From a virus: a stretch of 46,474 nucleotides of DNA. Of this stretch, positions 561 through 36,577 are shown one piece after another (positions within the stretch are counted from its first letter, which is position 1; each line of letters begins with the position of its first letter). A program made the translations under genes and the position numbers. A model generated the notes under the pieces. It made no database searches. It was not told where the DNA came from and worked only from the letters and a program-made list of their open reading frames with translations. The stretch is taken from the IMG/VR virus record IMGVR_UViG_3300049186_000011. One strand, 5' to 3'.

Positions 561-609
561 GTGACGTTTCTCCGGTTTGTTCGCGGCACCGGGTGGCGCC
601 GATAAATGC

Positions 610-638
610 AGATTACGCATTTTTAGTGAATGCGTCAA
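610..638 (-). promoter_or_regulatory. Sigma70-type promoter for the leftward early operon (PL-like)
   Basis: Minus strand reads TTGACG (638-633), a 17-nt spacer, then TAATCT (615-610). It lies about 50 nt upstream of the ATG at 560. Confidence 0.6.
612..635. promoter_or_regulatory. Operator-like inverted repeat overlapping the PL-like promoter
   Basis: ACGCATT (615-621) and AATGCGT (629-635) form an inverted repeat. The 14-mer ATTACGCATTTTTA (612-625) recurs exactly at 2316-2329 in the cI/cro intergenic region. Confidence 0.5.
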
Positions 639-1114
639 GCGCATTTTTTGGAACGAGGCCTGAAAATTACTGTTACATTTGGGAACAGTTGCGCTTACGA
701 AGTGGGAGGACTAGACTGTGGGCGTGGTGGGGATTTGTAGTAATGCAACCCGGGGCAGCGGGTCAAAAGGGTGGACGCATACAACTCTGCTTTGGCGTCC
801 GAAGCGAAACTCGATGGTCATCGGGCAGCGGGATTCCTGATAAAGCATTGCCGCCACAGCAAGAAAGCGCTGAACTGGCGCCATCAGAACTGCGGGACTT
901 GGCAATCCGGGGCACGGGAACACTCGCAAGATGGTACGGCCCGGATATACCAGAGATCAGCCCTGGTGAGCAAGAAGCTGCGCATGATGTCGGGCGCTGC
1001 CGGAAGCAACCGGCAAGGTTATGCTGGTTCTGCGAATCTGCTGCGCTCGTGAGCGTGCGTGACGGCGCAAGCGGAGGATCAGATGCATTTAATTGCAGCC
1101 GGCGCCAGTTTCAT
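639..1114 (+). ncRNA. ORF-poor region of about 0.5 kb; candidate structured non-coding RNA or decayed tRNA-like array (function unknown)
   Basis: The only long ORF (593..1132) has W/R-rich composition and hand-counted GC3 near 50%, against about 65-70% in neighbouring genes. Several local hairpins are present (773-800, 847-906, 997-1014). The motif GCAA(C/T)(C)CCGGGGCA occurs 3 times. A possible promoter is TTGCGC(689-694)-17 nt-TAGACT(712-717). A plus-strand terminator lies at 1204-1231. Confidence 0.3.
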
Positions 1115-1185
1115 GCTGCTGTAGCTCAGTAGAGAGCGACGGACCAATAATCCGGAGGGCGGGTGCAACTCCCGGGGCAGCTCCA
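1115..1185 (+). ncRNA. tRNA-like element with non-canonical features and an encoded CCA
   Basis: Hand-folded cloverleaf. Acceptor GCTGCTG/GGGCAGC gives 6 of 7 pairs. D-arm is GCTC-AGTAGA-GAGC, a short loop lacking GG. Anticodon arm is ACGGA-CCAATAA-TCCGG, with C rather than U at position 33. T-arm is CGGG-TGCAACT-CCCG, then T-CCA. An intrinsic terminator follows 19 nt downstream. Confidence 0.45.
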
Positions 1186-1203
1186 GTTTCATGTCCAGCA
1201 GAG

Positions 1204-1231
1204 TCCCCGCCTTGCGCGGGGATTATTTTTT
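1204..1231 (+). terminator. Rho-independent terminator
   Basis: Stem TCCCCGC (1204-1210) pairs with GCGGGGA (1216-1222) around a 5-nt loop, followed by TTATTTTTT. Confidence 0.8.
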
Positions 1232-1597
1232 CTGCCGGGCGTTTAGCTCGATCTCTAACACATCGTCTGGAGTCAAATCTGGAAGAGGAGCCGAGGACAT
1301 TCTGCCTTCACGATCTACATAACGAAGCGCCTGCAATACATCCCTGGGTTGCGCACCAGGAATTGGCTTCCCATCTTGATCCGTAGGTGTGTGCGACACA
1401 ATGCGCCAAACCCGTCCCGTCTGGGTATCGAGCAAATACTGATCACTCCGGTATTCTGAAATCTGGCCCAGAACAAACCTGCCATTGGCAGCCGCCAGAG
1501 TCTTTTGGGCTGGCGGCTGAACTTTTACGGCGTCCGCTGCCATGCATGGGATATGAGGTATCAGGCAATAAGCTGCACCTAAAATGATCTTTTTCAT
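1223..1597 (-). CDS. Small secreted protein (moron) downstream of cI
   Basis: 124 aa. N-terminal signal peptide MKKIILGAAYCLIPHIPCMA/ADA. AT-rich upstream region (1598-1720). Same orientation as cI. Confidence 0.7.
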   Translation of the reverse strand: MKKIILGAAYCLIPHIPCMAADAVKVQPPAQKTLAAANGRFVLGQISEYRSDQYLLDTQTGRVWRIVSHTPTDQDGKPIPGAQPRDVLQALRYVDREGRMSSAPLPDLTPDDVLEIELNARQKK

Positions 1598-35073: not shown

Positions 35074-35591
35074 TGGACCCGATCACCATTGCGATGGGCT
35101 TGGCCCAGTTCGCCCCCGGCATCATCAAGCTACTGACCGGCAGCGACAAAGCTGCAGACGTTGCTGCCGACGTGATCGGGATCGCGCAGAAAGCCACCGG
35201 CGCGGCGACAGGCGCCGACGCACTGGACAAACTGCGCGCTGACCCGACAGCCGTGATGAACTTCCAGGCAGCCATGGCAGCGCAGCAAGCCGACCTCGAT
35301 AAGGCTTATCTGGCCGACATGGCAGACGCACGGGGGCGCGATGTGGAGTTAGCCAAAGCCGGTCACACCAACCATCGCGCTAACGCCATGGCCGCTTGCG
35401 CCGTCGCCCTGGTGCTGTTCTGTCTGCTGGTGGTGGTCTGGAAAGCGGAGTTGAACGAGTTTGCAAAAGGTGGCGTGACGCTCATCTTGGGGCGGGCCCT
35501 GGGCTGGGTAGAGCAGGCGTTTTCGTTCGAATTTGGCTCCACGCGGGCCAGTAAGGCAAAGGATGACACGATCAAGGCACTCAGCCGCTAG
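35073..35591 (+). CDS. 3-TM holin-like protein (GTA-type holin family-like)
   Basis: 172 aa. MDPITIAMGLAQFAPGIIKLLTGSDKAADVAADVIG... with C-terminal TM segments. Confidence 0.5.
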   Translation: MDPITIAMGLAQFAPGIIKLLTGSDKAADVAADVIGIAQKATGAATGADALDKLRADPTAVMNFQAAMAAQQADLDKAYLADMADARGRDVELAKAGHTNHRANAMAACAVALVLFCLLVVVWKAELNEFAKGGVTLILGRALGWVEQAFSFEFGSTRASKAKDDTIKALSR

Positions 35592-36577
35592 AGCCTCTTC
35601 GCAATTTCATGCGCGGATTCGTTGTAATAAATCTGCAACATCCGCAAATCCTTGTGCCCCACCATCCGCGCCAATTCCAGCACGTTCAGCTTTTTGGCCA
35701 GGCGCGTAATTGCCTCGTGCCGGGTATCGTGGAAAGTCAGCCCCTCAATCCCGGCGCGCTCCTTCGCCTTGCGATATAGCGCATCCAGGCTGGCAGTCGT
35801 GATGCCGAAGCATGCATCGCCAGGATCACCCTTTGGCAGTTGGCCCAGCAATTCGACCGCGCGCGCCGACAATGGAACATCCCGTTTGCTGCCGTTCTTA
35901 GTCATTGGCAGATGCGCTACGCTGCCCGTGATGTCTCCCCAGGTCAGCCCGCATATCTCCCCTGCCCGCATTGCCGTCTCGATGGCGAACAGGAATGCCG
36001 CCGCCACCGCCTCCGACTTGTTGCTCACCGACTCCGCATACCCCAATGCGAGACAAATCCGCTCGATCTCGTCCTCGCTGATGCGCCGGTCGCGTGGAGG
36101 TGAGCCCTTAGGTCGTCGCACGTCAGTAGTCGGGCTCTCCTTGATCCACTTCCATTCCCTGCGCGCTGTGGTGAAAATGTGCGACAACAGATTTAGTTCC
36201 CGGTTGACGGTGGCGCCGGCTACCGTTTTCAGTCGCTCATCCCGCCACTTCCCCAGCATTTCGGATGTCAACTCGCTTACACGGATGTCACCAAGCACTT
36301 TTCCACTGATTACGTGGCTCTGGATGGCGTTCAGCCGAATTTCCTCCCATCGCCCGCCGCGCTTGTGCGTAGAAACTTCCGTCAAGTAGCGATCAAACGC
36401 ATCTTTGCACGTCTTGTCCGTATCAATGCCAGTGTCGGCCATGCGCCGCAACTGCGCCTCTCGCTCGCCAGCCCAAACCTGGGCCTCGCCCTTAGTCGCG
36501 AACAGCTTTGATTCGCGCACGTCCTTCACCTGGATTTGTGCGCGCCAACTATCCCGGTATTTCTTGATTGATGCCAT
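35588..36577 (-). CDS. int: Tyrosine recombinase / phage integrase
   Basis: 329 aa. ...AMRAGEICGLTW..., HDTRHEAITRLAK..., LARMVGHKDLRMLQIYY, matching the R...HxxR...Y catalytic signature. Confidence 0.95.
   Translation of the reverse strand: MASIKKYRDSWRAQIQVKDVRESKLFATKGEAQVWAGEREAQLRRMADTGIDTDKTCKDAFDRYLTEVSTHKRGGRWEEIRLNAIQSHVISGKVLGDIRVSELTSEMLGKWRDERLKTVAGATVNRELNLLSHIFTTARREWKWIKESPTTDVRRPKGSPPRDRRISEDEIERICLALGYAESVSNKSEAVAAAFLFAIETAMRAGEICGLTWGDITGSVAHLPMTKNGSKRDVPLSARAVELLGQLPKGDPGDACFGITTASLDALYRKAKERAGIEGLTFHDTRHEAITRLAKKLNVLELARMVGHKDLRMLQIYYNESAHEIAKRL

Follow-up and report, generated by a model that had tools for sequence, protein, structure and literature searches.

A deviant tRNA gene beside the immunity region of a temperate phage, possibly the last member of a collapsed tRNA cluster

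The unit found at positions 1115-1185 of the phage DNA described here is a real tRNA-shaped gene. On sequence grounds it seems fairly probable that the region hosting it is a relic tRNA cluster, with one survivor that decodes poorly or not at all; this would be a late-stage pseudo-tRNA rather than an RNA built for a purpose. The window, i.e. the whole stretch of DNA analysed (46,474 nucleotides, IMG/VR record IMGVR_UViG_3300049186_000011), constitutes a viral record of 46.4 kb that is complete, its terminal repeats stemming from assembly. All the sequence features described in the original prediction for this region are present where it had placed them.

The layout of the genome is lambda-like. 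The tRNA gene is located in a gap of 660 bp (561-1222), flanked by the leftward early promoter/operator region on one side and by lysogeny genes on the other. The relevant features, in the order of their coordinates, are the following.

start at 560, leftward: DUF7666 gene, an early gene
561..1114, no strand assigned: non-coding spacer from the DUF7666 gene to the tRNA gene (codon scores, no homologues, no gene call)
599..651, minus strand: operator-like inverted repeat and probable PL, TTGACG-17-TAATCT (about 639-611), a putative promoter
689..717, plus strand: candidate promoter TTGCGC-17-TAGACT for the tRNA unit, as read from the sequence
744..759, plus strand: fragment corresponding to T-loop, 3' T-stem and 3' acceptor strand (TGCAA..CCCGGGGCAGC), 11 nt exact
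902..914, plus strand: second such fragment, GCAATCCGGGGCA, 157 nt from the first, 12/13 identical
1037..1114, plus strand: probable decayed tandem copy, ending with GCGCCA and the spacer GTTTCAT (14-nt repeat, in-register alignment)
1115..1185, plus strand: non-canonical phage-type tRNA gene with encoded CCA, formally tRNA-Ile(AAU) (Rfam, class model R1, ARAGORN, minimum-free-energy fold)
1202..1234, plus strand: intrinsic terminator of the rightward unit (9-bp stem at 1202-1224 with 6 GC pairs, then a T-run)
1597-1223, minus strand: 124-aa protein with signal peptide (secreted lipoprotein), after cI
2240-1857, minus strand: cI-like HTH repressor
from 2344, rightward: cro-like gene
from 2568, rightward: cII-like gene
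36577-35591, minus strand: tyrosine integrase, with RecT-like and PD-(D/E)XK genes at the far end of the leftward operon

A 14-mer of the operator-like repeat (612-625) has a second copy at 2316-2329, in the interval separating cI from cro. The 124-aa secreted protein has no Pfam family. Homologues 40-60% identical to it are found in about 17 metagenomic protein clusters and, encoded behind a LexA-like repressor, in a prophage of Caldimonas tepidiphila. Another phage also has a homologue behind a repressor gene. The lipoprotein transcript lacks its own terminator, and would run antisense across the tRNA unit. Because the Caldimonas match is the only clue to the host, genomes of Burkholderiales (401 in all) were used as cellular comparison group; a host in this order is presumed.

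The unit 1115-1185 matches the Rfam tRNA family RF00005 over its full length with 34.2 bits and an E value of 4.5e-5 in a local search, the curated threshold of the family being 29 bits. It was not reported when Rfam was run over the whole window with fast default filters. ARAGORN, similarly, finds no tRNA at 1115-1185 at default settings, and calls a tRNA-Ile(aat) there once the threshold is lowered to 95%. The original prediction had proposed both kinds of search over the region. The compact cloverleaf that had been folded by hand is confirmed by the Rfam match, and is the minimum-free-energy fold of the sequence. The D-loop is AGUAGA, the T-loop UGCAACU, and the anticodon loop CCAAUAA. The elbow features A18 and G19 in the D-loop, G55 and C56 in the T-loop, so that the G19:C56 pair is kept and the 18:55 pair is replaced. 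Three standard tRNA properties are absent or altered: the G18-G19/U55-C56 signature is lacking, position 33 is C in place of U though the loop is of 7 nt, and the stack formed by the acceptor and T-stems does not reach 12 bp (7 + 5).

In the 401 Burkholderiales genomes nothing comes closer to the unit than ordinary tRNA-Met(CAU) genes, which are no more than about 75% identical, all others being short chance matches. A phage tRNA-Lys-like gene is equally close (about 76% identity), and the acceptor end resembles that of the common phage tRNA-Thr, GC...GCUCCA. Descent from tRNA-Met specifically was considered and is not established, as the tRNA-Lys-like gene matches equally well.

The elbow of the unit is widespread among phages. 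A metagenome scan made with the D-arm of the unit and TGCAAC retrieved several unrelated cloverleaves, which share D- and T-loops and have different acceptor and anticodon arms. Viral contigs were then searched with a pattern fixing the D-stem and the T-arm GGTGCAAYTCC and leaving the D-loop free (G55 scan, loci L076-L194), and with a control in which the T-arm was GGTTCAAYTCC (U55 scan, loci L195-L313). The D-loops sort as follows.

G55 T-loop, 84 distinct sequences: AG and no GG in 65, GG in 15
U55 T-loop, 120 distinct sequences: AG and no GG in 1, GG in 115

In viral contigs, T-loop type and D-loop type are hence tightly associated (Fisher p = 5e-33). ARAGORN calls ordinary tRNAs in 82 of 121 sequences, a set made of 120 G55 viral sequences and of the unit of the window, itself uncalled. 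The isotypes include Thr, Arg, Met, Ile, Phe, Gly and others, and Rfam gives the regular members 50-66 bits. A sizeable class of phage tRNAs has swapped G18:U55, as a pair, for A18:G55, and has retained G19:C56. The class, defined in the present analysis and denominated A18:G55 elbow-variant tRNAs, is marked by the T-loop UGCAAYU and by a D-loop carrying AG and no GG, and both features are present in 1115-1185. A covariance model, R1, was built from 49 phage members of the class, the sequence of the window being excluded. The unit is the sole match to the model, and scores 51.4 bits (E 2.4e-16 in the interval 500-1400, 1.2e-14 in the whole window). None of the 401 sampled Burkholderiales genomes yielded the G55 pattern; 1115-1185 is therefore a tRNA of phage lineage rather than one recently copied from a host. 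The UGCAACU loop and the lack of GG are not marks of decay, because they covary in many ordinary phage tRNAs. For the same reason, part of the case made originally for a non-canonical tRNA dissolves: the D-loop and the T-loop are a common phage variant, whereas the oddity of C33 and A34 stands. Papers dealing with the A18:G55 variant in phage tRNAs were looked for and none was found, from which neither novelty nor prior knowledge follows.

Several peculiar RNAs came to light during the scans. The tRNAs of one phage array often share the G55 type, as in loci L105, L117 and L121. A recurrent G55-class tRNA-like gene, ending with GCUCCA and featuring the 8-nt anticodon loop UAUUCCAA, is found in at least 18 viral contigs (L091, L094, L096, L099, L120, L126, L139, L167, L169, L175, L182, L150, L183, L193 and others). 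Its acceptor stems covary; it is not called by ARAGORN, and scores 32-34 bits with Rfam. In other array members ARAGORN reads anticodons of four bases (tggt, ttta). A 79-nt mini tmRNA (L069:470-548, found also in L061, L062 and L067) consists of the tRNA-like domain only, the mRNA-like part being absent, and matches Rfam tmRNA with 63 bits. Within about 8 nt after it, a tRNA-shaped RNA of the G55/A18 type is found (L069:557-621). Its anticodon arm has a stem of 3-4 bp, which covaries between contigs, and a loop of 9-10 nt. Locus L146 hosts at 336-816 a GOLLD RNA (148 bits, threshold 150), with a G55-class tRNA-Met(CAU) embedded at 681-751. C33 is found also in initiator-like phage tRNA-Met(CAU) genes, with loop CCCAUAA, in the unrelated viral contigs L124, L219 and L254.

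Once the elbow is explained, the oddities left in 1115-1185 are C33, A34 and one missing T-stem base. Of the 1206 distinct phage tRNAs that were called at the loci retrieved, 52 have C33, and about 23 have A34 outside ACG; each change is thus uncommon in phage tRNAs, and the two together are rare. Both the Rfam and the R1 alignments place the missing base in the 3' strand of the T-stem, and show a G7-G66 mismatch. The acceptor/T stack is therefore shorter than the normal 12 bp, which is the length measured by RNase P, the CCA enzyme and EF-Tu. The Rfam score of the unit (34 bits) falls among those of the non-standard members of the class (26-41 bits), below the regular ones. Because of C33, A34, the one-base deletion and the G7-G66 mismatch, the tRNA is most likely a poor or dead decoder.

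Traces of further tRNA copies are found upstream. The 11-nt direct repeat CCAGTTTCATG occurs in the whole window only at 1105-1115 and 1183-1193, and brackets the unit as originally described. The repeat extends to 14 nt, GC(G/T)CCAGTTTCATG, with a spacing of 78; it runs from the acceptor end and the discriminator through CCA and a 7-nt spacer to the G that opens the following unit. The three T-arm-like motifs that had been listed are also there, at 745-757, 902-914 and 1165-1181. After the unit itself, no sequence of the 46-kb genome matches the T-arm/3' acceptor 23-mer better than the fragment at 744-759, located 420 nt upstream on the same strand. The 65 nt preceding the first copy of the repeat can be aligned in register with the tRNA, with p about 0.015 against shuffles and about 0.013 against genome windows. 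In autocorrelation the strongest lags are 78 and 157, the latter ranking second, and the period-78 signal exceeds that of 95% of shuffles (p about 0.03). The interval from a start near 724 to 1193 is 469 nt long, about six 78-nt units, which may be a coincidence. No second tRNA-like copy is recognised by R1, in 500-1400 or in the whole window, or by Rfam. Three explanations had been put forward for the region, a large structured non-coding RNA, a decayed tRNA array, and a decoy or repair tRNA acting against host anticodon nucleases. The decayed array is the best supported of the three, at modest significance, by the 14-nt repeat, the alignment and the autocorrelation.

The terminator predicted on the plus strand has been recovered, stem and T-run, on that strand only, no T-run being found at the site on the minus strand. 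The lipoprotein gene converges on the terminator, and the two overlap at the stop codon of the gene (1223-1225). The promoter is less clear. The sequence TTGCGC-17-TAGACT is present at 689-717, as predicted, but matches the consensus at 7 of 12 positions, and was reported by neither of two consensus promoter scans of 560-1240 on both strands. The scans returned nothing, not even the evident leftward early promoter, and are uninformative for this phage because evident early promoters are missed as well. The 689-717 sequence shares the -35 hexamer and the spacing with TTGCGC-17-TAAAGT at 2283-2311, which occupies the place expected for PR, just upstream of the operator word ATTACGCATTTTTA and of cro. 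The identity of -35 hexamer and spacing to those of the probable PR would make the candidate promoter plausible by the phage's own standard.

No relative of the locus has been found. The region 560-1300 gave no blastn match against 50,697 phage records, and no viral contig contains an exact 25-mer of it. Neither similarity nor tRNAs nor Rfam matches were detected at 34 viral loci carrying a DUF7666 gene, and no tRNA-like element was detected downstream of homologues of the lipoprotein gene. No relatives of cI were found in viral contigs. The only other copy found, reached via protein look-ups, is in one contig 100% identical over 4455 bp.

Alternatives to a relic cluster have been weighed, starting from what the spacer may encode. 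The 0.45 kb upstream of the tRNA appears to be non-coding on composition and homology, in agreement with the original prediction, which saw no credible ORF in about 0.5 kb. The only long ORF (593..1132, 179 aa) has a GC3 of 0.49, as estimated earlier by hand, against 0.68 in the long genes of the phage; its codon score is negative and below that of 98% of real coding windows of the phage, and homologues were sought and not found. The 72-aa ORF on the minus strand has no homologue, Pfam has no match for the ORFs of the spacer, no conserved protein homologue covers positions 700-1100, and the JGI gene caller, run on the same phage, predicts no gene in 561..1114. It is very improbable that the region encodes a small orphan protein, either of 93 aa (771-1049) or of 40 aa (718-840, behind GGAGG), the tRNA-like unit being incidental. 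The 93-aa frame is predicted by one gene caller, is ordered as GC3 > GC1 > GC2 and has a codon score of 0.06, in the low tail of real genes, while a GGAGG is found 9 nt before GTG 718. The composition of the 93-aa frame is ambiguous, however, as 30% of open non-coding frames score as high; position 771 is not preceded by a ribosome-binding site, the protein matches only itself among 1.84 billion representative proteins, and tblastn gives no match in phages. A single large structured non-coding RNA of about 510 nt (690-1231), ending with a tRNA-like 3' domain, would account for the distance between candidate promoter and terminator, for the G- and A-rich plus strand and for the long-range complementary 10-mers present in the spacer. 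The long non-coding stretch on the tRNA strand of a phage recalls GOLLD and ROOL (RF02032 and relatives), and in L146 GOLLD surrounds a G55-class tRNA. Unlike these, the stretch matches no model and has no excess of structure: neither GOLLD nor ROOL nor any other large-RNA family is matched at E <= 10, and the Rfam search does detect such RNAs, since it scored GOLLD in L146 with 148 bits. The fold energy of 718-1231 (514 nt) is that of shuffled sequences (z = -0.49), with the opposite strand doing equally well, so that the several stable hairpins noted originally do not add up to an unusual stability. No homologues were found in phage records, in the 34 DUF7666 loci or in the 401 genomes, and the internal repeats are better read as tRNA fragments. 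The large RNA, one of the three explanations offered at first, is thus quite unlikely.

Integration might have left the tRNA fragments as att-type scars, or the tRNA might replace a host tRNA lost on integration. The fragments span T-loop to 3' acceptor, the usual att core of integrases targeting tRNA genes, and the phage has a tyrosine integrase. Lysogeny dependent on a phage tRNA is documented (Guerrero-Bustamante and Hatfull 2024, PMC10865867), and likeness extends to the temperate phage and to the location of the tRNA near lysogeny functions. In contrast to that system, there is no sign here of disruption of a host tRNA, the tRNA looks impaired, and its isotype, AAU, matches no standard bacterial tRNA. 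The integrase gene (35591-36577) is about 34 kb away, no tRNA-like match is found beside it or elsewhere in the genome, and the partial copies are upstream of the full gene, whereas integration would leave them downstream. The unit 1115-1185 is moreover too deviant to replace an essential host tRNA, and we regard both variants as having hardly any chance of being correct. An attB-like tRNA match beside the integrase was considered and discarded, being coding similarity only, with one weak match in genome G206. A live, deliberately non-canonical tRNA serving counter-defence is a possible reading, if a doubtful one. Transcribed from its own promoter beside the operators, it would either decode while escaping nucleases by virtue of C33, A34 and the G55 elbow, or act as a non-decoding decoy. 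Phage tRNAs have been proposed to evade anticodon nucleases by loop changes (PMC10264068, PMC11464382, PMC11555353). The unit resembles phage tRNA genes (RF00005) whose anticodon-loop variants have been proposed to elude anticodon nucleases of the host (van den Berg et al. 2023, PMC10264068; PARIS and the T5 tRNA-Lys, PMC11464382) in cloverleaf, encoded CCA, phage location and deviant anticodon loop, and many regular phage tRNAs are of its same A18:G55 elbow class. It differs from phage tRNA genes because solitary, located in the immunity region of a 46-kb temperate phage, marked by C33 plus A34 and by a T-stem/acceptor stack one base shorter, and scoring 34 against 50-66 bits. Next to a copy that has decayed, the unit keeps all four helices and the covarying A18:G55/G19:C56 elbow, and it has a strong terminator of its own. 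Abnormal loops recur in the G55 class, and non-standard anticodon loops can evidently be maintained, because the 8-nt-loop genes recur in viral contigs; C33, at 4%, is not rare in phage tRNAs. Yet no relative shares the unit, so nothing shows selection on its loop, and the base loss and the G-G mismatch shorten the stack. No host nuclease or target is known for this phage, and it is not obvious why a GC-rich host would call for an AAU anticodon. It is unlikely that 1115-1185 is a working non-standard tRNA-like RNA escaping or soaking up host enzymes that cut or modify tRNAs, with A18:G55 as a phage-wide adaptation against readers of the elbow or T-loop.

In the relic reading, a small phage tRNA cluster would have collapsed to its last member, 1115-1185, a tRNA of the A18:G55 type with encoded CCA. 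What is left would be a self-contained rightward unit, with the leftward early promoter on one side and the lysogeny genes (cI and the lipoprotein gene) on the other, made of the candidate promoter, a leader of about 390 nt containing period-78 tRNA debris, the tRNA and the terminator. Transcription from TTGCGC-17-TAGACT would start near 724 and stop at the terminator, RNase P would cleave before G1115, and the 3' trailer would be trimmed back to the encoded CCA. Tandem tRNA pseudogenes and decayed arrays are comparable in the period-78 remnants, in the decayed neighbouring copy and in the several lesions of the survivor. The locus departs from them in that the survivor keeps every helix and a dedicated terminator, and the decay of the other units is deduced from weak signals. 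Some observations do not fit a relic easily. The statistics favour further copies only modestly (p 0.015-0.03), and R1 sees one copy alone. If the tandem copies are equally old, an intact cloverleaf beside a decayed one points to selection on the survivor during much of its past. The strong terminator suggests that the unit is expressed now, or was recently, though no promoter reaches the usual consensus thresholds.

The locus adds one solitary deviant tRNA gene to those known from phages, in a temperate one, and the gene is missed by standard tRNA finders and by the JGI gene caller. The collapse of a tRNA cluster may explain the apparent gap of 0.5 kb, a point of use to annotators. In phage sequences, a D-loop without GG that accompanies a UGCAAYU T-loop is not to be taken as a sign of decay. 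The A18:G55 elbow class may merit a separate study: if the variant is purposeful, for instance as an escape from enzymes recognising U55 or the elbow, it would bear on why phages carry tRNAs.
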